This document shows positions 3,493 through 21,044 of a stretch of 64,000 nucleotides of DNA, in pieces. The position numbers and the translations under genes were made by a program. The DNA is from an uncultured Thermoplasmata archaeon (GTDB taxonomy: Archaea > Thermoplasmatota > Thermoplasmata > Lutacidiplasmatales > UBA184), in assembly GCA_963696985.1 (NCBI GenBank), contig CAVOMG010000001.1:692737-756736 (forward strand), given 5' to 3'. How positions within the stretch are numbered: position 1 is the first letter of the stretch; every line of letters starts with the position of its first letter. Under the pieces are notes generated by a model that saw only the letters and a list, made by a program, of their open reading frames with translations, was not told the DNA's origin and did no database searches.

Positions 3493-5268
3493 CTACGCGG
3501 TCCCTTCGGCGGGGGTCGCGAACGTGCTCGCCTTCGGGGGCTTGCCGGACATCTCGGCCCGCGCCTCGGCGAGCGCCTCCTTCGGGTCCTTGTAGTAGAA
3601 CGCGACGATCCGGCCGACGTCCCGGTGGGTGAACGGGCTCTGGCGAGTGGCGCTGGCCTCGCGCCACTTCATGTACTCGAGCATCTCGACCCGGTTGCGG
3701 ACCTCGCGCTCCATCTCCTTCATCGTCCAGTTCTTCATGAGCGCGACCCGCTCGTAGATGTAGGAGTGGCCCGAGTAGAGGAAGGTGTCGTCGCCCGGGT
3801 CCCACGAATAGACCGAGTTCGTGATCAGCTCGTTCGTCTCGGGGTCGAGTCCGACGATCTCCGTGAGGCTCTGGACCCGGCGGGTCATCTTGGTCCCGAC
3901 CTTGACCTGGCGCTGGAGCAAGACGAGGTTGAGCGCGCTCACGAGCGACCTCGGGAGGGAGATCGGGGGGTTCTCCATCCGGTGGACCATCGCCGAGACG
4001 CTCTCGGCGTGGAAGGTCGTGTAGCACGTCTTCCCCGTGGCCATCGCCTGGAAGACGATGAACGCCTCGGCCCCCCGGACCTCTCCGACCATCAGGTACT
4101 GGGGGCGCTGCCGAAGCGCGGCCGCGAGCAGGTCGAACATGTCGATCTCGCCGGGGGCTTTCCCGCTCACCACGTTCTTCGCGCCGAAGCCGGCCCGGGT
4201 GAGCGAAGGCACCCAGTTCTCGTGGGGGAGGTTGAGCTCCCGGGTGTCCTCGATGGAGACGATCTTCATCTGGCTCGGGATGAACAGGAGCGTCGCGTTG
4301 AGCGTCGTGGTCTTCCCGCTCGCCGTCCCCCCGCAGACCATCATCGATTGCCCGCTCTCGATGGCGATCCACATGTACGCCATCATCTCCGGGCTCATCG
4401 TCTTGAACTTGAGGAGGTCGACCGGGGTGAACGGATTGTCCCGGAACCGCCGGATCGTGAACGAGCTCCCCCGCTTCGTCACGTGCATGCCGAGCGTCGC
4501 CTGGAGACGCGAGCCGTCCGGCATCGTCGCGTCGAGCATCGGGCTCGCGACCGAGATGTGCTTCCCCGACCGCTGGGCGATCCAGACGACGTAGTCGTCG
4601 ACCTGCTTCGAGTCGGTGAACTTGATGTTCGAGCGGATCGAGCCGAACTTCCGGTGGTAGATGTAGAGCGGGATCCCGACCCCGTCGCAGGAGATGTCCT
4701 CGACCTCGGAGTCGTGCATCGGGACCTCGACGATCCCGTAGCCGATGAACTCCCGCTCGAGGTAGTAGAGGAGGCGGCCCTTCGTGACCGGGCTCGGCGA
4801 GAGCTCCCAGGCGACGAGCTGGTCGTCGACCATCTTGCGGAGCTCGCGTCGCTTGGTCTCGGCGTCGAGTTCGGGGAGCGGCTGGAAGTGGTCGATCAGC
4901 GTGACCCGCAGCCGTTCGAGCAGCCCCTTCTCGATCGCGGACATCGGGGGTTCGATCACCTCGTAGAGGTACTCGTTCTTCCCGGTGTGGTAGGTCACTC
5001 GGATGTAGGAGAGGCCCTCCCGGATCGGGGCGAACTCGACCTCCTTGATCAGCGGGTCGTCGATCGGTGGGATCGGCGTGGGCGTGCCCTCGGCGCCCTG
5101 CCCGGAGACCCCGAGCCGGGCGAGGCGGACGGCCCACGGGCCGGTGGTGCCCCGGGAGAGGGCCGCGCCGATCTTGACGAGCGGGGAGAAGAACGCCTTC
5201 GGTCGCTCCCTCCGGGCGGGGATCGTCTCCTCCGGGGCTTCTGCGGGTTGCCTTGCTGCACTCGCCAT
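3493..5268 (-). CDS. type IV filament assembly ATPase (archaeal FlaI/PilB/TadA superfamily), copy 2
   Basis: Walker A VCGGTASGKTTTLN, Walker B/Asp box QYLMVGEVRG, His box TTFHA. The N-terminal domain is typical of archaeal secretion ATPases (YLYEVIEPPM). ATG at 5268 preceded by GGAGAAGG. The ORF-track extension to 6117 is junk. Confidence 0.9.
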   Translation of the reverse strand: MASAARQPAEAPEETIPARRERPKAFFSPLVKIGAALSRGTTGPWAVRLARLGVSGQGAEGTPTPIPPIDDPLIKEVEFAPIREGLSYIRVTYHTGKNEYLYEVIEPPMSAIEKGLLERLRVTLIDHFQPLPELDAETKRRELRKMVDDQLVAWELSPSPVTKGRLLYYLEREFIGYGIVEVPMHDSEVEDISCDGVGIPLYIYHRKFGSIRSNIKFTDSKQVDDYVVWIAQRSGKHISVASPMLDATMPDGSRLQATLGMHVTKRGSSFTIRRFRDNPFTPVDLLKFKTMSPEMMAYMWIAIESGQSMMVCGGTASGKTTTLNATLLFIPSQMKIVSIEDTRELNLPHENWVPSLTRAGFGAKNVVSGKAPGEIDMFDLLAAALRQRPQYLMVGEVRGAEAFIVFQAMATGKTCYTTFHAESVSAMVHRMENPPISLPRSLVSALNLVLLQRQVKVGTKMTRRVQSLTEIVGLDPETNELITNSVYSWDPGDDTFLYSGHSYIYERVALMKNWTMKEMEREVRNRVEMLEYMKWREASATRQSPFTHRDVGRIVAFYYKDPKEALAEARAEMSGKPPKASTFATPAEGTA

Positions 5269-5279
5269 CGAACCTTCTC

Positions 5280-6257
5280 CTACGTGGTGATCGGCGGGAC
5301 CACGAACCGCATGATGACCCAGCCGGAGATGAGCATGATCGTCGCGTGCTGGAACCCTTCGGGGTACTTGCCCGAGAAGAGGACCCCGGCCATGATCCCG
5401 TCCCCGATCGCGTGGACGATGACCGCGACGAGGAACGCGACGAAGAGCGCCGGGACCAGGGTGAAGGAGAGCGTGACGGCGCCGGCGCTCGAGAGGCTGC
5501 TCGAGGCGATCCCCTGGCCGGCGAGCACCATCTGCGGCAGGAAGACCGCCGCCATGATGTAGATCGTGACGAGGAAAACGAAGAACGAGATGTAGATGAC
5601 CGTCACGTAGGTCAGCATCGAGATCTTCCGGGCCGCGAGCTGGTTCTGGGCCTCTCGGGTGTCGTGGGCGACCATCGTCAGGACGTCCGCGACGTTCCCG
5701 CCGGCCTCGTTCGAGCGGGTGATGATCGAGACGACCCGCTGGACGAGGGGGGTCGGCACCCGCTCCTCGAAGAGCCTCAGGGCGGTGGCCACCGGCACGC
5801 CCCATTCGAGCTGGCTCGCCATCCGCTTGATCTCCTCGGTCAGGAGGCCGTAGCGCCCTCGCGAAGCGACGATGATGGCATCCGGGAGGGTCATCCCGAA
5901 TCGGCCGGCCTCGGCGACGTCGCGGAGGAAGTCGGGGAGCCGCTCCTCGATCTTGTCGATCCGACGGATGCGGGTGGTCTCCGCGAACCCGAACGGCCCG
6001 AGGAGCAGGATCGCGCCGAGGACGAAGAAGTCGATCGCCGGGTTCGCCCCGGTCGCCTCGCCGGGGGCGACCGGCGTCGAGATCGTCCCCGTGAGGTTGA
6101 GGACCGCGACCACCCACAAGGCGATGGCACCCGCGAGCCCGAGCAAGAGGATGAGGAGTTCCCGGCGGAGGTGGGAACGCTCGGTATCGTGGACCGCGAA
6201 GACCCCCTCACCGGAGAGCTTCTGGGCGGCGGTCGCCGGGGCGTTCACGGCGGCCAT
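5280..6257 (-). CDS. type IV filament membrane platform protein, single T2SSF domain (TadB/TadC- or EpdJ/K-like), second of two
   Basis: 325 aa. N-terminal TM segments, a cytoplasmic helical T2SSF-like domain (LPDFLRDVAEAGRFGMTLPDAI ... RSNEAGGNVADVL) and C-terminal TM segments. Directly abuts the upstream platform gene. Confidence 0.85.
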   Translation of the reverse strand: MAAVNAPATAAQKLSGEGVFAVHDTERSHLRRELLILLLGLAGAIALWVVAVLNLTGTISTPVAPGEATGANPAIDFFVLGAILLLGPFGFAETTRIRRIDKIEERLPDFLRDVAEAGRFGMTLPDAIIVASRGRYGLLTEEIKRMASQLEWGVPVATALRLFEERVPTPLVQRVVSIITRSNEAGGNVADVLTMVAHDTREAQNQLAARKISMLTYVTVIYISFFVFLVTIYIMAAVFLPQMVLAGQGIASSSLSSAGAVTLSFTLVPALFVAFLVAVIVHAIGDGIMAGVLFSGKYPEGFQHATIMLISGWVIMRFVVPPITT

Positions 6258-7241
6258 CTAGCTCTCCGAGGCGAGCGATTGCATGGGGATGATGAAGCCG
6301 ACCTGGGAGACCGGGATCATGACCCCGACGATCAGGTACATGACGAGGAGCATGAAGCTCCCGCCGCTCCCGATGATGGCGAAGATCGCGATGATGATCA
6401 CCAGGAAGAGGGGGAAGGCGACCACGACGGTGACGAACGTCTCGGCGAAGAGGCCCATCGTCTCGACGCGCCTCAGCGTCTCGAGCTTGTGCTCCTGCTC
6501 GAACTGCTCGGCCTTGAGCAGGAAGTACGGCTTGAGCTGGCCGCCGCTCGTCGCGGTCGTCACCACCCCCTGGAGGAACTCCTGCCAGCGCTTCGAGGGG
6601 GTCCGGGTCGCGCCGTCCTTGAGCGCGGTGAGGATGTCGACCCCCAGGAGCTCCGTGTCCCGGGTGATCCAGGCGGCCTCTTCCGCGACCTCCCCGTAGA
6701 TCTTCTGGCGGGCGAGCTCCCGGAAGATCTGGTCGATGTTCACGTCCGCCGAGGACATGGCGCTGACGAAGCTCATCGCCGAAGAGATCTTCGCGTCGAT
6801 CTTTCGACCCCGGGACTTCGCCGCCGAGGCGGGCTGGCCCTGCATCACGAGGAAGATCACCGGGGTCAGGGCGACCGGGAGGGCGATCCACACGAGCGCG
6901 CCCAGGGCCCAGGCCGGCAGGCCGGGGAGGAGCGAGCCGCTGAGGGAGAGCAAGGCGAAGAGGATCCCGCCGACGGCGATGAGCGCGATCCCGGCGACCA
7001 CCGCGGTGCCGTAGACCTGCGCGAGGTACTCGTCTCCGCGCATCCGGATGTGGGCCTTCGCGAGCGACTCCTCGAGAAGCGGGTTCGGCGGGGACCGAAG
7101 CACCCGGTGCCGGAAGGTCCTCCACGCCCAGCGTTGGAAGGGCGTCAGGGTCGAGAAGGTGGGCTGGGAGCCGCGCTTGACGCGGACCTGGCGGGCGCTC
7201 GAATCCTCGGCCGGGGCCGCCGGGGGGAGCTTCGCGGCCAT
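6258..7241 (-). CDS. type IV filament membrane platform protein, single T2SSF domain (TadB/TadC- or EpdJ/K-like), first of two
   Basis: Start taken at ATG 7241 (MAAKLPPAAP...), 2 nt after the TGA that would close the corrected ATPase frame. T2SSF-like core (AKISSAMSFVSAMSSADVNIDQIFRELA ... GGQLKPYFLLKAEQFE) plus TM segments. Confidence 0.85.
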   Translation of the reverse strand: MAAKLPPAAPAEDSSARQVRVKRGSQPTFSTLTPFQRWAWRTFRHRVLRSPPNPLLEESLAKAHIRMRGDEYLAQVYGTAVVAGIALIAVGGILFALLSLSGSLLPGLPAWALGALVWIALPVALTPVIFLVMQGQPASAAKSRGRKIDAKISSAMSFVSAMSSADVNIDQIFRELARQKIYGEVAEEAAWITRDTELLGVDILTALKDGATRTPSKRWQEFLQGVVTTATSGGQLKPYFLLKAEQFEQEHKLETLRRVETMGLFAETFVTVVVAFPLFLVIIIAIFAIIGSGGSFMLLVMYLIVGVMIPVSQVGFIIPMQSLASES

Positions 7242-7243
7242 CG

Positions 7244-8889
7244 TCAGCTCCCCTCCGGGGCGTCGGGGGCCCGGGGGTCCGGGACTTGAGCATCTCCGCG
7301 ACCCCTTGGGGATCCTTGTAGTAGGCGGTGATCGCCTTCCAAAGGGCCCGGTAGTCATTGATGTTGTTGAGGGCCAGGTAGTGGAGGACCGAGACGCGCC
7401 GCTCGAACTCGGCGTCCATCTCCTCCGTCGTGAGGTTCTTCAGTTCCATGATCTTGTCGAAGAGGAAGGAGTGTCCCTTGAACAGGAAGGTGTCCGTCCC
7501 GGGGTCCCACTCGTAGACGGTGTTGGTGATGAGCTCGTTGGTCTCGGGCTCGAAGCCGACGATCTCGAGGACCTGCTTGAGCCTCCGCACCACGCCCTTC
7601 TCGGTCCGGGCCTGGATCTGGATGATGACGTTGTTGAGGGCCGAGAGCAGGATCCTCGGCGTGTTGATGGGAGGGTTCTCGAGCCGGTTCACCATCGACT
7701 TCACGCTGTCCGCGTGCATCGTCGAATAGGTGGTGTGGCCGGTCGCCATCGCCTGGAACATCGTGTACGTCTCCTTCCCCCGCACCTCTCCGACGATGAT
7801 GTAGTTCGGGCGCTGCCGCAGAGCCGCCCGCACGAGGTCGAACATGTCGACCTCGCCCGCGGCCTTCCCGTCGGGGCCCCGATCCCCGGTCCCGCTGCGC
7901 GTCGCGCCCGGGATCCAGTTCTCGTGGGGAAGGTTCACCTCCCGGGTGTCCTCGATCGAGACGATCTTCGAGGTCGGCGGGATGAAGAGGGCGACCGCGT
8001 TGAGCGTGCTCGTCTTGCCGGAGGCGGGCCCCCCGCAGATGATCAGCGACTCGCCCTGCTCGGCCGCGAGCCATAGGTAGGCGATCATCTCCTCGCTCGC
8101 GCTCCCCGTGGTGATCAGGTCGACGGGGGTGAACGGGCGCTCCTTGAACCGTCGGATCGTGAAGCTCGCCCCGCGGGTCGTGATCTCCCGGGCGTAGGTC
8201 GCCTGGACCCGGTGGCCTTCCGGGGTCGTCCCGTCGAGGATCGGGGCGGAGACCGAGACGGCCTTCCCGCACCGCTGGCCCAGTGAGACGATGAACGAAT
8301 TGAGCGTGTCCTCGTCGTCGAAGATCACGTTGGTCTTGATCGACTCGTACTTCCCGTGGAAGACGAAGAGCGGGACGTTCACCCCGTCGCACGAGATGTC
8401 CTCGACCTCGGGGTCGTGGATCAAGGCGTCGACGGGGCCGTAGCCGACGAAGTCGCGCTGGATATAGTAGATCAGCCGCTCGACGGAGAGCGGTCCGATC
8501 GAGATCTCCCGGCTCTTGAGGTACTCTTCGACCTCTCCCCGGAGGTAGGCCCGCTTGTCGCTCAGGCTCATGTTCGCGACCTCCGGCCCCATGATCTGGG
8601 TCAGTGTGGCCTTCATGTGGTCCACGAGCTCGCGCTCGTGCGACGAGAGCTGCGGTTCGATCACCTCGTAGAGGTGCTCCTTGCGGATCTCGTTGTAGCT
8701 GATCCGGCCGTAGGAGTAGGGCGGCTGGATCGCCGTGACCTGCTGCTCCTTGACCTCGGGGCCGCCGAGCGGCGGCATCGCCGTGATGAACGTGCCGGGG
8801 AGGTCCCCGCTCTCGTCCGGGGTCGAGGGCGAGGAGGCGGTGGCCTCGGTCGTGCGGGGGATCTTGACCCGGAAGGACGACGCGCTCAC
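7244..8889 (-). CDS. type IV filament assembly ATPase (FlaI/PilB/TadA superfamily), copy 1; C-terminal frame broken in C5/G3/C5 run 7264-7283
   Basis: Walker A ICGGPASGKTSTLN, Walker B NYIIVGEVRG, His box STMHA. The uninterrupted 893-aa ORF reads through into junk. A 1-nt correction in the homopolymers gives ...AEMLKSRTP.APDAPEGS* ending at TGA 7244-7246, which resembles the copy-2 C-terminus ...ATPAEGTA*. Confidence 0.85.
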
Positions 8890-8896
8890 AGGACCC

Positions 8897-9852
8897 CTAT
8901 TCCGTCCCCACCCCGATGACGAGGCGGACCTCGGCGTAGATCAGCGTGAACGAGGCGAGCTTGTTGAAGGTGAGCTTGAACGGGTAGCTCGAGGTGATCG
9001 GGGTCGCGCAGCTCGCCGGCGCCGTCGTGGTGACGTGGCTCGGGGAGGCCGTGAATCCCGGCGGGGCCTGGGCGAAGGTGCTCGCCACGAACGACGCCCA
9101 GGCGCAGGGATAGAACGTCCCCTCGATGAGCTGGGCGGCCAACACGTTCGTGGAGCTCGTGCTCGTGAACGTCTCGGTGAACACGAAGTGGCTGAAGATC
9201 TCCTGGGTGCCGATACCGGTGGCCTGGGTGGAGATCCCGGTGACCTCGACCAGGGTCTCGGTCACCCCATACCCCGAGCCCGTCTGGTTCACCGTGAGCG
9301 TTGGGGGGAACTCCACGAGCTGCTGGCCCGTTCCCTCCTGTTGGATCACGGCGTCGTTCTCGAGGGAGAACGTCTGGGGGGAGTAGTAGCGAGAAGGGAT
9401 ACTGACCTGAAGGGTCCCCATGCTGACGTTCTCGTAGAACAGGGTCCCGGCCGAGGTCGAGCCGGGGCCGGCTTCACCGAGACGTTCGAGTAGATCCCGC
9501 TGCCGGGGCTCGGCGGGATGAGGGTGATCGCGGCGCCCGTGGGCTGGGCGATCAGGGGAATGCTCTGGGATGCCATTGGGAACGGGGTCGCGAGGACCGC
9601 CAGCCCGCCGGAGAGGGCCTGGCTGTCGATCCCCACCTTCAGGTTCGCCAGAGCGGTCTGGACCTGGCTCGTAAGGGACTGTTCGTTCTCGCTCATCCAG
9701 AGCGGGACATACTGCGTCAGGAAGACCCCGAACAGGGCGAAGAAGACGAGCAGGGCGAGCAGAGTGCCCACCACGGAAACCACGGCTCGGGAACGGCGTC
9801 GCAGACTCCTACGGAAGCGGCGGCGCCGCCGCCCCGTGGAGGTACCTTGCAT
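8897..9852 (-). CDS. pilin-like protein with N-terminal hydrophobic (class III signal peptide-like) helix; frame broken near 9455-9475
   Basis: N-terminal part (ORF 9346..9852): RRRSRAVVSVVGTLLALLVFFALFGVF..., then a helix (NEQSLTSQVQTALANL) like that of the 525-aa pilin-like protein. After ...GIYSNVSV this frame becomes junk. The frame of ORF 8897..9421 continues (GSTSAGTLFYENVSMGTLQVSIP...) across ccggggccgg. Confidence 0.65.
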
Positions 9853-10111: not shown

Positions 10112-10987
10112 TCAGGTGACCGTGAACGCGATTGCGTAGGTTGATTTCTGACCGTTGGCGTCGGTGGCGGTCAGGAAGAAGTAGTACGTCGTGGCCGATC
10201 CGGGGTTCGGGGAGGTGAGGGGGCTTGAGGTGTCGTTGTAATAATACAGGCCGCTCGACCCACTTCCGGTCATCGCGTGGCTCACCGCTCCCGAGGACTC
10301 CGAGAGGTTGACCTTCACGGAGTCTCCCGAGCTCGAGCCGAACTCGACGACGGCCGAGAGGTTGAACTTGTACGAAGCCGCCGGTCCGATGGTGCTCGGG
10401 GTCAAGGTCACCGAGGAGAAGTAGGGCGCGGCGCTCGGCACCAGGGCGAAGATCGTCTCCCGGAAGTCGAGGAGGTCGTGGACGACGATCGAGACCGTCA
10501 GGTTGTCCGGGGAGGTGAGACTGTAGGAGGCGAGGCTGACGTTCCACGTCTGGTCGAAGCCCCAGATCGAGGCCCCGCCCAGTCCGGCCGCCAGAGTGAA
10601 CGGACTCGGGATGGCGGCTGGGTGCTTCTGGGAGACGATGTAGACGGCGGCCTGGGACGTGCTGGAACCCGTCAGGACGGTCCCGGAGAGGTGGGTGATC
10701 GCTATCCCCGTCACCTGGAGGCCTCCGGACCCTCCGTAGGTGAGGGCCACGGTGAACTGGGTCAACACCTGCGGTTGGGCGGTCGGGTTATGGCTCGTGA
10801 AGATGAAGATCGAGGCGAAGAGGGTGATCGTCATCCCAAGGAGGAGGATCGTGGCGACGACCTCTGAGACGCCCCGCCGACGTTCCCGGCGCCAGCCGCG
10901 GCCGCGATGCGAGATCACGCCACCCTCCCATACCGGCGGTTCGGAGCGCTCCCGCCCATCCTGATGGTTGAAATGCCGGAGAATCAT
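10112..10987 (-). CDS. archaeal type IV pilin-like protein (DUF1628-type N-terminus), paralog B
   Basis: Class III signal peptide RRRG/VSEVVATILLLGMTITLFASIF. Shares a middle module (IVSQKHPAAIPSPFTLAAGLGG ... DNLTVSIV) and a C-terminal module (TYYFFLTATDANG...) with 11080-11964 and 14617-16410. Several N-x-S/T sequons. Confidence 0.8.
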   Translation of the reverse strand: MILRHFNHQDGRERSEPPVWEGGVISHRGRGWRRERRRGVSEVVATILLLGMTITLFASIFIFTSHNPTAQPQVLTQFTVALTYGGSGGLQVTGIAITHLSGTVLTGSSTSQAAVYIVSQKHPAAIPSPFTLAAGLGGASIWGFDQTWNVSLASYSLTSPDNLTVSIVVHDLLDFRETIFALVPSAAPYFSSVTLTPSTIGPAASYKFNLSAVVEFGSSSGDSVKVNLSESSGAVSHAMTGSGSSGLYYYNDTSSPLTSPNPGSATTYYFFLTATDANGQKSTYAIAFTVT

Positions 10988-11079: not shown

Positions 11080-11964
11080 CTAAGAGACCACCAGGGGCAG
11101 CGAAACGACCGTGACCCGGTTGTTGCCGTCGGTCGCGGTCATGAAGAGGTAGTAGGTCGTCGGCGACGAGGGGGAGGGGGTCGTTCCCGAGTAGGTGTAG
11201 GTCGTTCCGGCGGAGAGCGTCATCGCATGGAGCCCACCCGACGGAAACTCCGTGGTGTTGATCGTGACCGTGTTCCCGGAACCGGAGGCGAACGTCACGT
11301 GGACCGAGACGGTGAAAGCGGTCGCCCCGCCGATCGCCCCGGAGGGGGTCACGTGGACCGTCCCGAAGTACGGGGCGAACGTCGCGATCGAGACGAGAAG
11401 GGTCGACTCGTATTCGAGCTGGCCCGAGGCGATGACCGAGACGGTCAGATTGTCCGGCGCGGTGATCCCGTAGGTGGAGAGGTTCTTCGTCCAGGTCTGC
11501 CCGAAACTCCAGACCGTCGCGCTCATCGGGAGTCCCTGGGCGAGGGTGAAGGGATTGGGGATGGCGGCCGGGTGCTTCTGGGAGACGATGTAGATCGAAG
11601 CCTGGGAGGAGGAGGCTCCGGAGATCGTCGTACCCGAGAGGTGGAGGATCGAGATCCCGCTGACCGAACTGCCGCTATAGCTCACGGAAGCGTCGAACTG
11701 GTTCAGGGGTTGGGGGCCCGGCTTCGGGAGGTCGCGGTTGATGAAGAAAAATATCGCGCCGAACAGGATCACCGTGATCGAGAGGAGCATCATGGTCGCC
11801 ACGATCGTGGAGACCCCCCGGGAACGGGGTCGACGACGGTGGCGCCTCGGAATCGGAGAGGGGTCCTGGAAGAGGCTTATCGCGCGCATTCCCCCGACCG
11901 AGGTTATCATGCCGGGGGGCCGTACATAGACATTCCCACTATCACTACCCGCCCTCCGATCCAC
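11080..11964 (-). CDS. archaeal type IV pilin-like protein (DUF1628-type N-terminus), paralog A
   Basis: RSRG/VSTIVATMMLLSITVILFGAIF class III signal peptide and the same modules as paralog B (IVSQKHPAAIPNPFTLAQGL; TYYLFMTATDGNN). The true start may be an internal ATG (11910 or 11889). Confidence 0.8.
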   Translation of the reverse strand: MDRRAGSDSGNVYVRPPGMITSVGGMRAISLFQDPSPIPRRHRRRPRSRGVSTIVATMMLLSITVILFGAIFFFINRDLPKPGPQPLNQFDASVSYSGSSVSGISILHLSGTTISGASSSQASIYIVSQKHPAAIPNPFTLAQGLPMSATVWSFGQTWTKNLSTYGITAPDNLTVSVIASGQLEYESTLLVSIATFAPYFGTVHVTPSGAIGGATAFTVSVHVTFASGSGNTVTINTTEFPSGGLHAMTLSAGTTYTYSGTTPSPSSPTTYYLFMTATDGNNRVTVVSLPLVVS

Positions 11965-12007: not shown

Positions 12008-13585
12008 CTACTGGACCGAGATCTGGACCGTCGCGAACGTGACGGCCATCGATTGGATGTTGAGCGGGATCAAGAGCGACACGATGTCCCCGGCGGGAGG
12101 GTTCGTGCAGCTGTAGGGGGAGGCGATCGAGGCCGCCGAGTAGCATCCGATCGTGCCGTTCAGGACCGCCGGAGGAAGGGCGTCGAAATAGGAGAGCCAG
12201 GCCCCCGGGTACGCCGTCGTCACGTTCAGGGCCGGATCCTCGAAGAGCTGGTTGCCGTTGACCGTCACGGGGAAGTTCGACCGGAGCACCGACTCGGAGA
12301 CGAGCTGGGTCACGATCGCCGCCGTCGAGTATCCGCTCGCGGTCAGGAAGGAGCTCTCGACGAAGGTGATCAGGGTGAGCCGGGCGGTGTTCCCGGCGGA
12401 GCTGACCGTGAAGTTGAACGCGGGGGGATCGATGAGGACCGAACCGCTCGACTGACCCGCGATCACGGCCCCGTCCTCGAGCGAGAGCGTCTCCGCGCCG
12501 ATGTAATGGTTCTGAAGCCCGACCGAGAGGCTCCCGGCGCCGGCGAAGAAGGGGGCGAACAACCCGGTCGGTCCGGTCCCACCGAACGCGCAGAATGAAG
12601 GCAGGGCGGCCCTGGAGATATTCTGCCACGTCAACGCGGGGCCACCCGCCGGAGTGAAGGAGTGGGTGTTGCTCGTGCCGACGGAGTTGTAGAAGTTGAG
12701 GGCCTGCGTATTGCCCGAGCTGCTGACCGAGAGCTTTCCGACCTTGTCGGTCGAAGCGAGGTTGTTGTACGGGCACCCGGTAGATCCTTGTGGTTCCTTC
12801 TCGCCGATGAACCGGGTCACCACGGTGGCGCCCTTCCCGTTGAACTTCGAACCATACTGGTAGGTGTCGTTGGACCCGTAGAGGTTGAAGTTCAAGGTGG
12901 AGCCACTCCCGCCCTCCCAGTTCACGGTCAGCACGTCGTGGCTCCCATACAAGGTGAAGTTCAACGGGGGGACCATGTTGTTGTCCGTGATGTTGAGGGT
13001 GATGCTGTTGAAGTCGCCGGTGACATTCATCACCGGGCAGGAGCCCGAGTTCCCCGTGATCAGGAAGAAGTAGGATTGGTGGCTCAGCGTGACGTTCCAG
13101 GTTTGGGACGGGGTGCAGCCGTTCACGTCGAACGTGCACGTCGTCCGGTTCCCGGAGATGACGATGCCGCCATCGCACAGCCCGCCGGTGCCGTTCGCCG
13201 GTCCCGCCTTGATGGTCTCCGCGATCAGCCGCGTGCCGTCGCCCGAAGGGAGCAACGCCAGTTGGCCGCTCGCGGCAGGACCGAAGGGAGGGATGGGCGC
13301 CGAACCGAGGCTGATGGGGGCGCTCAGGACCGAACGGACGTGCGGGGAGGCCACCTCCGTCAGGATATCGTTCTGGAGCGCCCCGAACTGATTCTCGACC
13401 TGGATCAGGTGTTGCAACTCAGCGTTCTGCTCTTCCGTCGGCAATGGAGCGATCGCCAATTCCGCGATCAGGGAGACGACGATCAGTAACCCAAAGAGCG
13501 TGGCCACGGCGGCGACCTGGCCCCGCCGGTCGAGGCTCCACCGACGGCGGGCCGAACGAACCGACCGGGCGCCCAATTGCCGCAT
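12008..13585 (-). CDS. large pilin-like protein (525 aa) with class III signal peptide, Cys- and sequon-rich
   Basis: DRRG/QVAAVATLFGLLIVVSLIA (Gly at -1, Gln at +1). The extracellular part has about 10 Cys and many N-x-S/T sites. First gene of the leftward operon, with a TATA-like box ~27 nt upstream. Confidence 0.75.
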   Translation of the reverse strand: MRQLGARSVRSARRRWSLDRRGQVAAVATLFGLLIVVSLIAELAIAPLPTEEQNAELQHLIQVENQFGALQNDILTEVASPHVRSVLSAPISLGSAPIPPFGPAASGQLALLPSGDGTRLIAETIKAGPANGTGGLCDGGIVISGNRTTCTFDVNGCTPSQTWNVTLSHQSYFFLITGNSGSCPVMNVTGDFNSITLNITDNNMVPPLNFTLYGSHDVLTVNWEGGSGSTLNFNLYGSNDTYQYGSKFNGKGATVVTRFIGEKEPQGSTGCPYNNLASTDKVGKLSVSSSGNTQALNFYNSVGTSNTHSFTPAGGPALTWQNISRAALPSFCAFGGTGPTGLFAPFFAGAGSLSVGLQNHYIGAETLSLEDGAVIAGQSSGSVLIDPPAFNFTVSSAGNTARLTLITFVESSFLTASGYSTAAIVTQLVSESVLRSNFPVTVNGNQLFEDPALNVTTAYPGAWLSYFDALPPAVLNGTIGCYSAASIASPYSCTNPPAGDIVSLLIPLNIQSMAVTFATVQISVQ

Positions 13586-13862: not shown

Positions 13863-14597
13863 ATGGGTATTCATGCGCACCGCTGGCGCCGCGGCCCCCA
13901 CTCTCGGAACGGAGTCTCCGGCATCATCGCCACCATCCTGCTCGTCGCCATTACGATCATTGCGGTGGTCGTCCTCGCGGTCTTCCGTCCGGCCCTGAAC
14001 CAACCGCCCCCGACCATTGACTACGTGGTGAAGGGCGGACTCTCCGAGCAGGCGTGGAGCGACCCGACGGATTGCAGCAACACCACCCAATACGCCCACT
14101 GCAACGCCCTGCCCGCGATCTTCGTCCTCATCAACGGATACTCCCCCTCCTACCTCTCACTCGCCCAGCTCAACCTGATCGTCGTCTGCAACGGGACCGA
14201 CCTCATCGATGCGAGCCTCCAGAACCTTGAGGTGATCCCGGGATCGGGGGCGTCTCCTCCGGCCAACGCCCCGCAGATCGGCAACTGTGGGACCTGGTCG
14301 TGGGGCCAGGGCGGCAACGGCGCCTTCACGGGGACGTACTTCAATCGGCTCCTCTACTACCAGCAGTACACCCCCGGGGCGGCAGGCGTCGCCCAGGGGG
14401 ATGTCCTGGTGATCTTCGCGCACCCGGCGAACGACTTCTGCGACTATTCGGGGAACTGCCCGGACGACGACTACCACGGGGCGCCGTTGTGGTGCTTTAA
14501 CGTCCCCGGAGCGTGCAATGTCTACCTCACCTACTCGAGCGGTTCGACGAACGACCTCGTGATGAGCTTCTCCCTGTACGGCTTGAGCCGTCAATGA
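13863..14597 (+). CDS. archaeal type IV pilin-like protein (DUF1628-type N-terminus), Cys-rich
   Basis: SRNG/VSGIIATILLVAITIIAVVVLAVF class III signal peptide. 10 Cys in the globular part (DCSNTTQYAHCN, GNCGTW, FCDYSGNCPDDD, WCFNVPGACN). Confidence 0.8.
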   Translation: MGIHAHRWRRGPHSRNGVSGIIATILLVAITIIAVVVLAVFRPALNQPPPTIDYVVKGGLSEQAWSDPTDCSNTTQYAHCNALPAIFVLINGYSPSYLSLAQLNLIVVCNGTDLIDASLQNLEVIPGSGASPPANAPQIGNCGTWSWGQGGNGAFTGTYFNRLLYYQQYTPGAAGVAQGDVLVIFAHPANDFCDYSGNCPDDDYHGAPLWCFNVPGACNVYLTYSSGSTNDLVMSFSLYGLSRQ

Positions 14598-14616: not shown

Positions 14617-16410
14617 ATGGGACCGGCGCCCGCGCCCAAGGGCGACCCCTGGAGGGGTCCCGTGACGCGGGTTCTAGGGCCATCGACCGCGCGACGTCGC
14701 CGTCGACGCCCTCTCCGTCACGAGCTGGGGGTCCAGGACGTCGTCGGGACGATCATCATCCTGGCGATCGCGGTGGTCCTGGCGGGGATCGTCACGCTCT
14801 GGGTGAACACCTACCCCATACAGAATGCCAACCGGACGGACCTCTTCTCGGTCAATCTGACCTACGGAGGCTCTACTTGCGTGCTCGGCTGCGGGTCCGG
14901 TCACCCCACGACCGCGCCCTCCATGAGTGGGATCAAGATCGAGCTCCTTGCCGGCCCTCGGATCGTGGGGGTCTCTACGACCCAATCCTCGGTGCGGCTG
15001 GCCTCCCAGCAGGTTCCTTCAGCTTTCACGAGCCCGTTCACTCTGGGCGCCGGCCTCGGGGGGTCGCCGAGCTGGTCGCCCGGCCAGACCTGGTCGCTCA
15101 ACCTGACCCACTTCGGGATCCCCTACTACGACAACCTGACGATCATCGTCGATTCGAGCAATGAGGTCGTGATGAACTCCGTGGTTCCCGGGCCGAACCC
15201 GTTGAGCCCACCCTACTTCAGCACAGCGTCGGCCATCCCGAATCCCGTGGCCCCCGGGTCCAAGATCAACATCTCTGCGACGATCGTCGCCCCGGATGGG
15301 CTCAACACCTCGAAGCCGCCCGCGACGGTGTTCGCGAACCTGACCGAGATCAACATCAACGGGGCGAACAAGGCGGTCGCCCAGATCGGCGTCAGCACGA
15401 ACCCCGACGGCATCGCGGCCGACACCTCGAACGGCTACGTCTACGTCGCGGACGCCGGGTCCTCAAGGGTCTCGGTGTTCAACGCGACCTCCTACGCCAC
15501 CGTCGGCAGCATCACCGTCCACACCCACCCCCAGGGCGTCGCGTACGACGGGACCGACTCGGAGATCTTCGTGACGAACAACGGTTCGGCCAGTGTCTCG
15601 GTCATCAGGGACTCGAACGACCACGTCGTGGCCACCATCACGGTCGGGACCGACCCGGACGCCGTCGCGTTCGACGCCTTGAATGGGGAGGTGTACGTCG
15701 CCAACTACGGGTCGAACTCGGTCTCGGTGATCACCCCTTCGAACAACCACGTCCTGACCACGATCACCGTCGGCACGCACCCCTCGGGGATCGCGTTCGA
15801 CGGCGCGAACGGCAACCTGTACGTCACGAACCAGGGCAGCAACACGGTCTCCGTGATCAACGGCGCGACGAACGCCGTCACCTCCACGGTCACCGTCGGT
15901 ACCCAGCCCCTCGGGGCGGGGTTCGACGCGGCGAACGGCGACATCTACGTGACCAACGTGGCCGCCAACACGGTCTCGGTGATCAGCGGGGGATCCGGGA
16001 CCGTGATCGCCACCGTCCACACCGGCAAGGCCCCGGAAGCGGCCACTTGGGCGAGCTCGACCGGGGACGTCTACGTCGCCGATTACTCCCAAAACAACGT
16101 GACGATCATCAACGGGAGCTCGAACCACGTGCTCGGCTCGATCAACGTGGGCACCGAGCCGGACGCGATCACCTTCGACGCCGTGAACCAGACCGTGTTC
16201 ACCGCGAACTACGGGTCCAACAACGTCACGGCGATCACGACGACGAACCTGCTCGTCGTGTCGCTCAGCTACTCCACCTCGTCCGGGAGCTGGTATGTCG
16301 ACTTCACCCTCCCGGCGGCCACGCCCGCCGGGACGTACTATGTCTTCCTGACCGCCGTCGACAACATCGGCCTGACGGCGCAGGTCTCGGTCCCCGTGGT
16401 CGTCTCGTAA
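14617..16410 (+). CDS. pilin-like protein fused to a YVTN-type seven-bladed beta-propeller
   Basis: HELG/VQDVVGTIIILAIAVVLAGIV signal peptide. Has the paralog middle module (SQQVPSAFTSPFTLGAGLGG ... DNLTIIV), then seven ~41-aa repeats (P.G.A.D...G.VYV.N.GSN.VSVI), then the shared C-terminal module (TYYVFLTAVDNIG...VVVS). Confidence 0.85.
   Translation: MGPAPAPKGDPWRGPVTRVLGPSTARRRRRRPLRHELGVQDVVGTIIILAIAVVLAGIVTLWVNTYPIQNANRTDLFSVNLTYGGSTCVLGCGSGHPTTAPSMSGIKIELLAGPRIVGVSTTQSSVRLASQQVPSAFTSPFTLGAGLGGSPSWSPGQTWSLNLTHFGIPYYDNLTIIVDSSNEVVMNSVVPGPNPLSPPYFSTASAIPNPVAPGSKINISATIVAPDGLNTSKPPATVFANLTEININGANKAVAQIGVSTNPDGIAADTSNGYVYVADAGSSRVSVFNATSYATVGSITVHTHPQGVAYDGTDSEIFVTNNGSASVSVIRDSNDHVVATITVGTDPDAVAFDALNGEVYVANYGSNSVSVITPSNNHVLTTITVGTHPSGIAFDGANGNLYVTNQGSNTVSVINGATNAVTSTVTVGTQPLGAGFDAANGDIYVTNVAANTVSVISGGSGTVIATVHTGKAPEAATWASSTGDVYVADYSQNNVTIINGSSNHVLGSINVGTEPDAITFDAVNQTVFTANYGSNNVTAITTTNLLVVSLSYSTSSGSWYVDFTLPAATPAGTYYVFLTAVDNIGLTAQVSVPVVVS
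15388..16248 (+). repeat. seven tandem ~41-aa YVTN-family beta-propeller blade repeats (coding)
   Basis: Periodic motif seen directly: GVAYDGTDSEIFVTNNGSASVSVI / AVAFDALNGEVYVANYGSNSVSVI / GIAFDGANGNLYVTNQGSNTVSVI / GAGFDAANGDIYVTNVAANTVSVI, and further blades. Confidence 0.75.
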
Positions 16411-17191: not shown

Positions 17192-18121
17192 ATGCCGGCG
17201 CCTCCGGGCCCGATACCTGCCTCCGGCCGGCCGTCGGTTCTTTACCCCCGCAGGGGGGTCATACGTCTCGTGGACAGCTCCGTCGAACGGGTCGAGCTGA
17301 GCGACTTCGCCCAGTGGCGCGTCGCGACCGAGAGCCAGCTCCGCCACCACCTTCGGACCTATCGGTTCCTCGGGCTCGTGGCGTTCATCGTGGGGATCGC
17401 GCTCGCGACCCTCGCCTTCGAGTTCCATGCCGGCGCGGCGCTGGTTCGCTTCAGCGAGCTCCACTCCGCCTCCGAGTACCTGAGCGATTTCCTCGTCTAT
17501 TCGGGGCTGATCGTCGTCCTCGCCGCGGCCTTCTTCGGAGGGGATGCGCTCAGCCAGGACTTCGCCTCCGGCACGGGGTACTTCACCCTCGTCCAGCCGG
17601 TCCACCGCTCCGTCCTCCTCGCGGGACGCTACGCCTCCGCGACGCTCGCCTCGGTGGTGGTCGTGGGGGCGTACTTCCTGATCGCGGTCCTCGGAGCGAT
17701 CGCCTTCTTCCCCGCCTCGACCCTCCCTTGGGGGCTCCTCGGGGTCTCCTTCGGCCTCGCCCTCCTCTACACCCTCTCGGCGCTCGCGGTCGCCTTCACG
17801 TTGAGCGCCTTCATCCGGACCCCGGCGATCGGTGTCCTCGTCACGGTGCTCGTCCTCTATGTCGGGTTCGCCACGGTCCAGAGCGTCGCGGAGCTCGGGG
17901 GCCTCGAGCCGTGGTGGTCGTTCACCTATGCCGGCGGAGCGATCGCGGCCGTGCTCGACATCGACTTCGCCCACTTCCAGTCGATCCCGGTCGGCCAGAA
18001 CGAGACCCTGACCGCGTGGACCGCCTCTCCAAGCGAGGGCGCGGTCGTGATGCTCGTCTACCTGTTCGTCTTCCTCGGGCTCAGCATCTACCTCTACGAG
18101 ACCAAGGAGTCGACGGGGTAG
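17192..18121 (+). CDS. ABC-2 type transporter permease
   Basis: 309 aa with about six predicted TM segments. Immediately followed (3-nt gap) by an ABC ATPase. Confidence 0.7.
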   Translation: MPAPPGPIPASGRPSVLYPRRGVIRLVDSSVERVELSDFAQWRVATESQLRHHLRTYRFLGLVAFIVGIALATLAFEFHAGAALVRFSELHSASEYLSDFLVYSGLIVVLAAAFFGGDALSQDFASGTGYFTLVQPVHRSVLLAGRYASATLASVVVVGAYFLIAVLGAIAFFPASTLPWGLLGVSFGLALLYTLSALAVAFTLSAFIRTPAIGVLVTVLVLYVGFATVQSVAELGGLEPWWSFTYAGGAIAAVLDIDFAHFQSIPVGQNETLTAWTASPSEGAVVMLVYLFVFLGLSIYLYETKESTG

Positions 18122-18123
18122 CG

Positions 18124-19059
18124 ATGCCGACGATCGAGGTTCATGACCTCTCGAAGCGCTTCGGCTCCGACCCCCGACGACCGGCGGCCCTCGAGGCGAT
18201 GAGCCTCCGGTACGACCGCCCCGGGGCGGTCGCCTGCCTGGGCCCGAACGGGGCCGGGAAGTCGACGCTCCTCAAGCTCTTGGTCGGTCTCCTTCGCCCC
18301 TCGACCGGGACCATCCTCTTGAACGGGATCGACCTGGCCGCGAGCCGGAAGGAGGCCCTCTGGGACGTCGGCGCGGTGATCGAGCGGCCGGAGCCATACC
18401 CCACCCAGACGGTGGGCGAATCGCTCCGGATGGTGGGCCGATTCCGTGGCCTCGGCAAGACCACGCTCGAGCCCAGGATCCGCGCGCTCGCCGAAGAACT
18501 CCACCTTCCCCCCCTCGAGGTCCGCAACGGGTCGCTCTCCAAGGGCCAGGGTCAACGGGTGGTCCTGGCGGCGGCGCTCCTCGCCGACCCCAAGGTCATC
18601 CTGCTCGATGAGCCGGAGAGCGGGCTCGACCTCGCCGAGCGGGTGATCCTCCGTCACCTCCTTAAACGTCTTCGAACCGACCACCTCCTCCTGCTCTGCT
18701 CCCACAATCTCGGTGAGGTCACCCAGACCTGCGATGAGCTCATGTTCCTCGATCATGGCCGCCTCGTACTGCGGGCCCGCACCGAGGAGGTCCTCGCGCG
18801 GGTCCGGGCCCGGGAGGTCGATGTGGAGTTTGCCCAGCCGGTCGCCCGAGATCGCCTCCAAACGCTCGCCCCCGGTCTCGAATCGGTGACCGCGGTGTCC
18901 GAGCGCCGGTTCCGACTGACCTTCGATGGCTCCGACCGGACCCGCGCGGAACTGCATTCGGCGTGCGCCCGGCTGGGACCCTTGGTGAGCTTTTCGAACA
19001 CCTCCCTCCTCCTCGAGGAGGCGTATCTAGGTCTCATTTCATCCGGGGAGGCCGGCTAG
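18124..19059 (+). CDS. ABC transporter ATP-binding protein
   Basis: Walker A GPNGAGKST, signature LSKGQGQRV, Walker B ILLDEPESGLD. ATG at 18124. Confidence 0.9.
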   Translation: MPTIEVHDLSKRFGSDPRRPAALEAMSLRYDRPGAVACLGPNGAGKSTLLKLLVGLLRPSTGTILLNGIDLAASRKEALWDVGAVIERPEPYPTQTVGESLRMVGRFRGLGKTTLEPRIRALAEELHLPPLEVRNGSLSKGQGQRVVLAAALLADPKVILLDEPESGLDLAERVILRHLLKRLRTDHLLLLCSHNLGEVTQTCDELMFLDHGRLVLRARTEEVLARVRAREVDVEFAQPVARDRLQTLAPGLESVTAVSERRFRLTFDGSDRTRAELHSACARLGPLVSFSNTSLLLEEAYLGLISSGEAG

Positions 19060-19075
19060 TGCTGGAACGCCCACC

Positions 19076-19711
19076 ATGGTGAACGCCACGCCGGTCGGAC
19101 CCGCGCCCCCTCGGGGGAGCCGTCGAGGCGTCGCCCTCCCGCGATACCTCGGGAGCCTGTATCTTCTCGCGCTCCTCGGAGTCGCCTTCCTGTCGATGGG
19201 CCTTTACGCGAACGCGATCTCGAGCGTCCCCCCTCCGAGGACCGGGTCGACCCCGGTCCTCGTCGGACTTGCCCCGCCCGTGGTCGGGACGGTACCGTGC
19301 GGGAACGCGACGACGCTCCACTCGGAGACGATCGGCTGGACGAACGCGACGGGCAACTTGACCACGGCCGATGTCTACGTCAAGCTCGTGGAGCTCGTCG
19401 ATTCCGACTTCATCGGCGCGCGGGACCCTCCCGCGCAGGTGACCAGCTCCAACGTCTGCGCCGGCGACCCCCCCATGGGGGCGTTCGACTGGTACGTCGC
19501 CCTAGGCGCGCCCCACGGCGGGTTGTTCCTCGCGGTCTTCTCCTACCTCAACGGCTGGGCGGCCGTCGAGGGCGGCCCCACTCCCGCCCCGATCGCCGAC
19601 GGTTCGAGTCTCACGCTCGTCTCCCGCCACTCCTTCTCGAACAATGGCTACGGGCTTTTGATAGAGGGCTCGGTGGGCGGCCCGACGGTGCATGGAGAGG
19701 TGACGCTGTAA
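19076..19711 (+). CDS. hypothetical membrane-anchored extracellular protein
   Basis: N-terminal TM/signal anchor (LGSLYLLALLGVAFLSMGLYA), N-x-S/T sequons, no recognised family. Tightly packed in the ABC operon. Confidence 0.6.
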   Translation: MVNATPVGPAPPRGSRRGVALPRYLGSLYLLALLGVAFLSMGLYANAISSVPPPRTGSTPVLVGLAPPVVGTVPCGNATTLHSETIGWTNATGNLTTADVYVKLVELVDSDFIGARDPPAQVTSSNVCAGDPPMGAFDWYVALGAPHGGLFLAVFSYLNGWAAVEGGPTPAPIADGSSLTLVSRHSFSNNGYGLLIEGSVGGPTVHGEVTL

Positions 19712-19712
19712 G

Positions 19713-21044
19713 ATGGACGGACCGATCCGCGCCGAGCGTCCAGGGAGGGGGATCGGGTTCGCGCGTGCCCGAGAAGAGGCTCCCGGACGGGCTCGGCCTC
19801 CCGCGCCTCGCCGTGGGGGTGGCCCCCCCCTCGCGATCGGCCTCGCGATGACGCTCTTGGCCGGGGCCTGGCTCGGCGGCCCCTCGAGCCTCCTCTTGGG
19901 GGCCGATCGCGGAGCCGTACTCGCCCCGGACGCTCCGTATGCCTCGATCCCGCCGGACCGGCACGGTTGGACGAACGTGACGGCGGTCACGCGGGAACCC
20001 TCCCCCGCGCTCGAGTCGTACAGCATGGCCGTGGTCGACGGGACGAGCGAGACCGCGATGGTCTTCGGAGGCGTCGGAGCGCATGGCAATGTCACCTCGA
20101 CCACGTGGATCTACGATGATGGCAACTGGGAGGACATCACGCCGGTGATCAACGGGAGCTCGCCCCCGCCGCTCTACGACGTTAACCTCGCCTTCGATGC
20201 GAGCACGGGCTACCTCCTCTTGTTCGGTGGCCGGACCGGATCGGGTTCGCCGTACAACGGTACGTGGGAGTGGTCGTACGCGGGCTACCACTGGACGGAG
20301 CTCCACCCCCCGACCTCACCCCCCGCCGAGAGCGGCGGGGAGATGGCGTATGATCCGTCGAGCGGCTCGGTGGTGTTGATCGACCCCGCCTCGAACCTGA
20401 CCTGGCTCTGGCGGGCCGGCGACTGGACCGCGGAATCCCTGATGCCATCACCGGGGATCCGGACCGGGGCGGTCATGGTGACCGACTCCAACGCCTCGGA
20501 CGTGCTCCTCTTCGGCGGGACGCCCGTGAACGGAGGACCCCAGCTCAATGACACTTGGACGTTCGCCGGGGGCCGCTGGACCGAGCTCCCGGGGGTCGGC
20601 GCCCCGCCGCCTTTCCGGAACGCGAGCGCCACGGACGACCCGTTCCTCGGCGGCGTTTTCCTCGTCGGGAGCGTCGCCGGCGGGACGACCGAAACCTGGA
20701 GCTACACCAGCCTCGGTTGGCGGGAGTACGCCCCCAGCCCGTCCGACCCTCCGCCCCGCCTCGGGGCGACGCTCGCCTTCGACTCTTCGGGAACCGCCGT
20801 CCTCTGCGGCGGGGTGGATCCCGACAACGGCCTCCTCCGGTTCGACTGCTGGACCTGGGGGGTCGCCTACATCCCCCCGAACCCCGGAGGGAACGCCCCG
20901 CCGCTCACCGCGGAGGTCGAAGGCGTGGCAGTGGTCGTCGTGGTCGTTCCGCTGGCCATCGCGATCTACCTCGGCCTTCGACCGCGCCGGCCCGACCTGA
21001 GTCGGGTCCCAGCCCCGGCCGCTTCTGCGGAGCCCGCCGCGTAG
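19713..21044 (+). CDS. Kelch/galactose-oxidase-type beta-propeller protein with C-terminal TM anchor
   Basis: Repeated blades of the form ...LLFGG....G...NDTW.F..G.W.EL... (for example LLLFGGRTGSGSPYNGTWEWSYAGYHWTEL; VLLFGGTPVNGGPQLNDTWTFAGGRWTEL). C-terminal VAVVVVVVPLAIAIYLGL followed by RPRRP. Confidence 0.75.
   Translation: MDGPIRAERPGRGIGFARAREEAPGRARPPAPRRGGGPPLAIGLAMTLLAGAWLGGPSSLLLGADRGAVLAPDAPYASIPPDRHGWTNVTAVTREPSPALESYSMAVVDGTSETAMVFGGVGAHGNVTSTTWIYDDGNWEDITPVINGSSPPPLYDVNLAFDASTGYLLLFGGRTGSGSPYNGTWEWSYAGYHWTELHPPTSPPAESGGEMAYDPSSGSVVLIDPASNLTWLWRAGDWTAESLMPSPGIRTGAVMVTDSNASDVLLFGGTPVNGGPQLNDTWTFAGGRWTELPGVGAPPPFRNASATDDPFLGGVFLVGSVAGGTTETWSYTSLGWREYAPSPSDPPPRLGATLAFDSSGTAVLCGGVDPDNGLLRFDCWTWGVAYIPPNPGGNAPPLTAEVEGVAVVVVVVPLAIAIYLGLRPRRPDLSRVPAPAASAEPAA

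Follow-up and report, generated by a model that had tools for sequence, protein, structure and literature searches.

A seven-bladed YVTN beta-propeller nested in a pilin-like protein of an uncultured Thermoplasmata archaeon

Architecture of the propeller-pilin

The stretch of DNA analyzed here, which we call the window, comprises 64,000 nucleotides of contig CAVOMG010000001.1 (GenBank assembly GCA_963696985.1, positions 692,737 to 756,736) from an uncultured Thermoplasmata archaeon. Its G+C content is ~68%, and its relatives are all labelled as Thermoplasmata archaeon metagenome-assembled genomes (MAGs). Among its genes is a type IV pilus-type locus in which the genes from the assembly ATPases to a 525-amino acid (aa) protein lie on the minus strand, while a gene for a 244-aa protein and the gene studied here diverge on the plus strand. 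The latter, which we refer to as the propeller-pilin gene, occupies 14617-16410 (+) and has an intact open reading frame (ORF) of 597 codons from an ATG at 14617. The more likely start is a GTG at 14662. Because a GGAGG at 14651-14655 lies 6 nt ahead of that codon, and because the public gene call (P0001) and an 84% identical ortholog (P0002) both have it as their start, a product of 582 aa with a 23-residue Arg-rich leader is probable. Residue numbers throughout are those of the 597-aa frame.

The protein has four parts: a pilin leader and helix, a beta-domain, a split immunoglobulin (Ig)-like domain, and a nested seven-bladed YVTN beta-propeller. A preliminary description, made from the sequence, had proposed a pilin-type N terminus, modules in common with the tandem pilins, and an array of seven YVTN blades placed between these modules, and all of these structural claims held. 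An AlphaFold2 (AF2) model built from a 22-sequence alignment (predicted local distance difference test [pLDDT], 84.2; predicted template modeling score, 0.63) placed a helix at residues 42-65, the beta-domain at 76-190, Ig strands at 200-241 and 547-596, and the propeller at 253-541. A run without an alignment was unusable (pLDDT, 46.8), and the alignment-based run was taken instead.

The propeller (residues 252-545; 15370-16251, +) was identified by profiles, repeats, AF2, and Foldseek. It matched the TIGR02276 YVTN repeat with an E value of 4e-53 and NHL with an E value of 2.5e-18, and it consists of seven blades of exactly 42 residues each, gap-free, with G-x-x-P anchors at residues 260, 302, 344, 386, 428, 470, and 512. 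The measured length of 294 aa agrees with the ~290 aa given in the preliminary description. The model is confident over residues 260-540 (pLDDT, ~95). Tandem repeats of ~42 residues, the TIGR02276 match, and a closed propeller in the model together place the domain in the YVTN family. Its best sequence match in the PDB was 1L0Q (E = 2.1e-41), and the top Foldseek match to the whole model was the same entry (E = 1.2e-23), a Methanosarcina surface-layer YVTN propeller with a PKD domain. YncE came next. Relative to the target chain, the template modeling scores of the two were 0.65-0.84. Only propellers were recovered when Foldseek was run with the whole model, a result that is uninformative on the fold of the pilin body.

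The pilin body begins with the beta-domain (residues 76-190; 14842-15186, +), which BLASTP, alignment, and AF2 all identify as common to the neighboring pilins. Residues 38-223 matched the product of the gene at 10112-10987 with an E value of 2e-26 and 32% identity and that of the gene at 11080-11964 with an E value of 1e-16, which bears out the earlier claim that this middle module is common to the tandem pilin paralogs. The paralogs themselves pass the Pilin_N profile (PF07790), with 34.9 and 33.1 bits, respectively. The C-terminal module (the last 24-50 residues) was also said to be shared. Its matches to the two paralogs were weak (E = 0.005 and 0.002), and those to orthologs that lack the propeller were stronger (42-49% identity; E = 1e-9 to 1e-10), in line with that claim. 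The protein has only two cysteines, which make up a C-x3-C pair (C88 and C92; 14878-14892) in a Gly-rich loop of the beta-domain, STCVLGCGSG. This pair is kept in the orthologs P0002 and P0003 and in those of loci L008, L009, and L010, the L010 loop bearing 11 consecutive glycines. The major pilins and the more distant ortholog P0012 lack it. N-glycosylation sequons were not significantly enriched in the propeller-pilin (13, versus 10.0 ± 2.7 in shuffles).

In ordinary pilins, the beta-domain is followed by one continuous Ig-like unit with the pattern PYF...NLTE...AMT.S.S.G.Y.Y...TYY.F.TA.D...V.V. In the propeller-pilin, the first three strands of this unit (residues 199-246, ending ...VFANLTEININ; 15211-15354, +; alignment and AF2) come before the propeller, and the remaining strands (residues 546-597, LLVVSLSYSTSSGSWYVDF...GTYYVFLTAVDNIG...VVVS; 16252-16407, +; BLASTP, ortholog alignment, and AF2) come after it. 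As modeled, then, the propeller is nested in one loop of the C-terminal Ig-like domain, the halves of which flank it. The preliminary description had placed the propeller between modules. This stands insofar as the flanks are shared modules, but the insertion lies inside a loop of the C-terminal domain and splits it. The alignments required some care at this point. A global MAFFT alignment that included pilins with long C-terminal extensions misplaced the C-terminal Ig half onto blade 1, and with the propeller-less orthologs added, this half was aligned correctly save for ~11 residues. No other insertion at this loop was found among ~110 proteins of the family, whose long members extend C terminally instead. 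One candidate from a pattern match, P0190, proved false on inspection.

Had the flanking modules been common surface-protein domains, the assignment to pili would fall, a concern that the preliminary description had itself raised. A HMMER search with residues 36-250 against 1.84 billion representatives returned only 83 relatives. Ten relatives of the N-module were scanned, of which nine matched Pilin_N, seven of them above the cutoff; the tenth, P0160, had no Pfam match at all. CARDB was also matched in the C-terminal extensions of several scanned relatives. A group of proteins carrying the same module (P0163-P0169) pass Pilin_N with 32-44 bits. Against the PDB, the module profile produced five matches only, all weak and all to archaeal type IV filament (T4F) subunits. 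Because the relatives are few, nine of the ten scanned match Pilin_N, and the PDB matches of the module profile are exclusively archaeal filament subunits, these comparisons indicate that the flanking modules are pilin specific and not generic S-layer domains.

Class III signal peptides combine a basic leader with a [K/R][G/A] motif and a hydrophobic helix of ~20 residues, the pattern used by FlaFind-type searches. The window copy has an Arg-rich leader (residues 16-38, ending ...RHELG; 14662-14730, +) with predicted cleavage after G38, in the context ...RHELG|VQDVVGTIIILAIAVVLAGIVTLWV, followed by a hydrophobic N-terminal pilin helix (residues 39-65; 14731-14811, +). The helix appears in the AF2 model at residues 42-65, gives sub-threshold matches to Pilin_N and TIGR02537, and is the region to which five PDB chains of archaeal pilins or archaellins align. 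The basic leader, the Gly at -1, and the helix are thus all present, but the residue at -2 is an atypical Leu (RHELG|VQD). The three orthologs P0002, P0003, and P0012 carry canonical sites (RG|VQD, RA|VQD, and RG|VSD, respectively), and the Gly at -1 and the mature start V-Q-D-V-V-G-T are kept across the alignment. Of the class III signal peptide claimed in the preliminary description, the pilin-type leader and helix therefore stand, with canonical sites in the orthologs, whereas the cleavage motif of the window copy and its profile scores fall short of the usual pattern.

It is conceivable that the helix is never cleaved and merely tethers a propeller glycoprotein in a disordered envelope layer, its pilin ancestry being historical. 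The noncanonical -2 residue, the sub-threshold Pilin_N score, and possible frameshifts in the locus of this assembly are all compatible with such a signal anchor. We nevertheless consider it quite unlikely. The orthologs have canonical sites, the Gly at -1 and the mature start are conserved, and the N-module is the most constrained of the three regions compared below (ratio of nonsynonymous to synonymous substitution rates [dN/dS], 0.17). Moreover, assembly machinery lies beside the gene in the window and in loci L001 and L002, and the flanks in L008 and L010 keep pilin and accessory genes.

The pilus locus and a candidate peptidase

Directly upstream of the propeller-pilin gene lies the gene for a Cys-rich, pilin-like protein of 244 aa (13863-14597, +; Pilin_N, 25.1 bits; TIGR02537, 27 bits). 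The same gene is the adjacent, co-oriented upstream neighbor of the target-family gene in L001, L002, L008, L009, and L010; in L004 a pilin gene separates the two, which are on opposite strands. On the minus strand, pilin paralogs A (291 aa; 10112-10987) and B (294 aa; 11080-11964), recognized by Pilin_N, are the candidate major pilins. Next to them is a gene for a 525-aa protein with an N-terminal hydrophobic anchor (12008-13585, -), which had no Pfam match in the profile scan and is by synteny a conserved member of the locus. A second gene conserved by synteny, of the 318-aa type (8897-9852, -), appears in the window as two overlapping ORFs of 174 and 168 aa in different frames, as opposed to a single gene of 290-318 aa in L001, L002, L008, and L010. 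The split is probably an assembly indel, judging from these orthologs.

The assembly machinery follows on the same strand, its genes identified by profile matches. Two T2SSE-type ATPases flank two T2SSF-type genes, 5-11 kb from the propeller-pilin gene in the same locus: ATPase 1 (7264-8889, -), a platform split into two genes (6258-7241 and 5280-6257, together 5280-7241, -), and ATPase 2 (3493-5268, -), which is ~49% identical to ATPase 1. The frame of ATPase 1 has no stop until 6208 and so runs through ~350 Arg/Pro-rich codons across both platform genes. The ortholog in L001 is a normal protein of 551 aa, which makes an assembly indel of one base near 7240-7290 likely. Completeness of the genome by marker genes is 75.7%, and this value for a three-contig genome, together with the two indels of the locus, suggests an error-prone long-read assembly. 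ATPase and platform genes also lie beside P0002 and P0003, in L001 and L002. Around P0012, in L004, there are pilin and accessory genes only, the contig ending before any ATPase or platform gene.

Processing of a class III signal peptide calls for a dedicated peptidase, and a first search of the genome for Peptidase_A24 found no match at E values of 0.001 or below. A relaxed search recovered a 309-aa membrane protein (L005:808-1737, -; equivalent to contig C3:392750-393679 of the window genome, G000) that is a candidate A24-family prepilin/preflagellin peptidase. It passes Arc_PepC_II (31.4 bits; cutoff, 29.9), matches FlaK_Arch (E = 8.6e-13), and displays both Asp motifs, DWRSREVPD and GAADAK. 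On these grounds the genome plausibly encodes a class III peptidase, and because the protein scores below threshold on Peptidase_A24, a divergent member would have been missed by a Pfam search at default thresholds.

Downstream of the propeller-pilin gene, beyond an ACT-domain gene that separates the two, is an operon (17192-21044) for a permease of the ABC-2 type, an ABC ATPase, an anchored protein, and a Kelch-type propeller protein that has its anchor at the C terminus; the operon is kept in L001. Scans for sigma-70 promoters and terminators found nothing; such scans are unsuited to archaea.

Orthologs with and without the propeller

Searching a collection of 5.8 billion sequences produced only three full-length relatives, P0002 (84% identity), P0003 (63%), and P0012 (42%). 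With the window, this makes four independent assemblies, all from different samples, that contain the same architecture. This bears on the possibility that the gene is an assembly chimera, or that it is decaying and joins the fragment of a propeller gene to a pilin. Probable indels in neighboring genes of this assembly might raise such a suspicion, but the frame is intact, the insertion consists of seven whole blades with both Ig halves preserved, the AF2 model is confident, and, as described below, the gene bears the mark of purifying selection. The chance that we are dealing with an artefact is very small indeed, and the four independent assemblies and the purifying selection effectively refute it.

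The most distant of these relatives, P0012 (L004:2955-4709), has three near-identical consecutive blades (VVGSAITVGSGP.AVAFDATNGYVYVVNNGANTVTVINGATDA), which suggests a recent duplication or homogenization of blades within its nested propeller. A recent propeller donor within the window genome was considered and rejected, since the other YVTN loci of that genome are at most 40% identical.

In a scan of GTDB species genomes, orthologs without the propeller were found in two other Thermoplasmata MAGs (loci L008 and L010), with 66-71% identity. In both, the equivalent of residues 39-246 runs directly into that of residues 536-597. Gene order around these orthologs is that of the window: the 318-aa gene, pilin A, pilin B, the 525-aa gene, the diverging 244-aa gene, the target, and the ACT-domain gene. 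Across the order, the pilin module is present in 132 of 186 genomes. Among the best 30 loci from these 186 genomes, the propeller lies between the modules only in the window genome (G000) and in G098, and the C-module comes directly after the N-module in at least 18 of the other loci.

Eight genes of the target type form a single clade (support, 100/100) apart from the major pilins. By this phylogeny, the target type is a distinct and conserved third pilin paralog, the core role of which would be independent of the propeller. On the tree of the pilin module, the presence of the propeller requires two changes; uniting the four propeller-bearing genes was not rejected (approximately unbiased test, P = 0.33), and on the propeller tree, uniting them gave a slightly better likelihood (P = 0.63). 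The history of the propeller may thus be one gain followed by a loss or two gains, the trees being compatible with both. Between the window and L001, dN/dS was lowest for the N-module (0.17) and higher for the propeller (0.27) and the C-module (0.28). Judged by these ratios, the propeller is kept by purifying selection, more loosely than the N-module, as expected of an exposed binding head.

The same module is found in other settings as well. It stands at the start of open frames 1,700-2,350 codons long in other genera of the order (G003, G007, G008, G009, G013, G014, G016, and G181), and in a common class of 700-800 aa (P0121 and P0163-P0169) CARDB-like and further domains are added at the C terminus. 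From its distribution, the pilin module looks like a carrier of general use in this lineage.

Proposed role as a modular minor pilin

Taken together, these observations make it probable, in our view, that the propeller-pilin serves a CdiP-like type IV pilus as a modular minor pilin and displays its propeller outward for binding. It corresponds to a modular pilin in the sense of Raynaud et al. (2021), a definition made for bacterial IPR012902 pilins that is here extended to an archaeal module with a nested domain. According to the mechanism we propose, the preprotein would reach the membrane by way of its class III signal peptide; the candidate A24-family peptidase would cut the Arg-rich leader after Gly38. 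The hydrophobic helix would then pack into the filament core beside the two major pilins encoded by adjacent genes, with the beta-domain and the Ig-like domain forming the outer layers of the filament. As the propeller would exit and re-enter through a single loop of the outermost domain, it would project from the filament as a putative adhesive head that binds a ligand, located at the tip or dispersed over the shaft. The preliminary description had spoken of a tip or decorating adhesin, and the protein is most likely a built-in adhesin.

Several points weigh against this interpretation. The propeller-pilin scores 20.5 bits on Pilin_N (cutoff, 25.2) and 17.7 bits on TIGR02537 (cutoff, 20), and position -2 of the window copy is Leu (ELG|V) where K or R is usual. 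The candidate peptidase reaches only 19.3 bits on Peptidase_A24 (cutoff, 26.5). The probable frameshifts in ATPase 1 and the 318-aa gene are either assembly errors or a sign that the system is decaying. Finally, steric hindrance could make it difficult to pack a head of ~300 aa along a shaft.

A variant of our proposal is that the subunit co-polymerizes anywhere along the shaft to yield a propeller-studded pilus, the presence or absence of the cassette acting as an evolutionary switch that retargets adhesion. Because nesting keeps both chain ends inside the pilin fold, co-polymerization along the whole shaft would be possible, but we hold this extended form of the proposal to be unlikely. More speculative still is an analogy with the structurally similar YncE, by which the propeller might bind nucleic acid and the filament serve as a DNA-capture pilus.

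The closest parallels to a pilin bearing such cargo are bacterial. Streptococcus sanguinis has two modular pilins, PilB, which carries a vWA module, and PilC, which carries a lectin module (Raynaud et al. 2021; PMC8179133). Like these, the propeller-pilin combines a pilin carrier with a bulky grafted binding module, is a minor pilin encoded with pilus genes, and has a proposed role in adhesion. It differs in being archaeal and of the Pilin_N/DUF1628 type rather than of IPR012902, in having a body of two beta-domains, and in the placement of its YVTN cargo, which is nested in a loop whereas theirs is attached C terminally via a linker. Nesting itself has a counterpart in GspK, the tip-located minor pseudopilin, in which an extra domain is inserted in the beta-sheet region of the pilin (summarized in PMC8179133). 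There too the pilin fold retains both ends of the chain, but the insert is alpha-helical, the system is the bacterial type II secretion system, and there is no sequence relationship to the propeller-pilin.

Presentation of a beta-propeller on a type IV pilus for adhesion is known from the PilY1/PilC tip adhesins. PilY1, however, is itself no pilin but docks on a complex of minor pilins, and the propeller it carries belongs to a different family (IPR008707), making it a functional analogue and not a relative. Consistent with this, the PilC/PilY1 Pfam families did not match the propeller-pilin in the Pfam scan. As for the propeller, the protein of Methanosarcina mazei represented by 1L0Q likewise sets a seven-bladed YVTN propeller beside an Ig-like/PKD domain on an archaeal surface, but proteins of that type are envelope proteins without a pilin start, and their propeller is not nested.

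For the machinery, the nearest comparison is the CdiP pilus of Cuniculiplasma divulgatum, which has two ATPases, a platform split into two genes, and a minor pilin (PMC12448462). The window shares this Thermoplasmata-lineage arrangement of two ATPases and a split platform, a likeness drawn from the described layout and not from sequence. The CdiP pilin differs in being a 135-aa protein with a single head, its pilin genes lie far from the machinery, and no propeller-bearing subunit has been described for it.

Alternatively, the protein could undergo pilin-type processing and yet serve in a bindosome-like display, that is, a short cell-proximal pseudopilus or surface array whose propeller binds a substrate or polymer, as with the sugar-binding proteins of Sulfolobales that bear a class III signal peptide. 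Class III signal peptide proteins with binding domains are reported to be widespread in archaea and have been proposed to "functionalize" T4F machineries (PMC13705601). YVTN propellers are typical of archaeal envelope proteins (1L0Q), Thermoplasmata are without a regular S-layer (PMC12448462), and an ABC-2 transporter operon lies just downstream. Bindosome proteins resemble the propeller-pilin in that a class III signal peptide precedes an extracellular binding domain and in their dependence on T4F (PMC13705601). However, they carry an ABC-type solute-binding domain directly after the helix and are usually encoded beside ABC importers, whereas the propeller-pilin keeps, beyond the signal peptide, an entire pilin body of two domains that the presumed major pilins also have. 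No solute-binding-protein domain was matched in Pfam and NCBIfam scans of the propeller-pilin, and the neighboring transporter, beyond the ACT-domain gene, is of the ABC-2 exporter type and not an importer. In addition, the target keeps its fixed place in the pilus locus also where it lacks the propeller. We therefore see such a display as an unlikely explanation and continue to favor a modular minor pilin.

The preliminary description knew of no characterized archaeal pilin with this architecture, and our literature searches agree. No paper joining YVTN, pilin, and archaea was found, and the archaeal T4F surveys that we searched make no mention of pilins with propellers. Archaeal proteins that combine a class III signal peptide with functional domains have been published (PMC13705601). 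Particular to the present case are its host among the Thermoplasmata, a pilin body of two domains, an insertion point nested within one of them, and the syntenic orthologs with an empty site. The public label of such genes, "YVTN family beta-propeller protein," masks their pilin nature.

To our knowledge, almost nothing is known of how archaeal type IV pili gain binding specificity. The propeller-pilin provides a natural experiment on this question, in which the same minor-pilin gene, at the same locus in related species, occurs with and without a 294-residue propeller whose insertion is mapped to one loop. It should be useful for structural work on a filament subunit that tolerates a nested 30-kDa domain, for the question of tip versus shaft in modular pilins, and for the engineered display of folded domains on archaeal pili.

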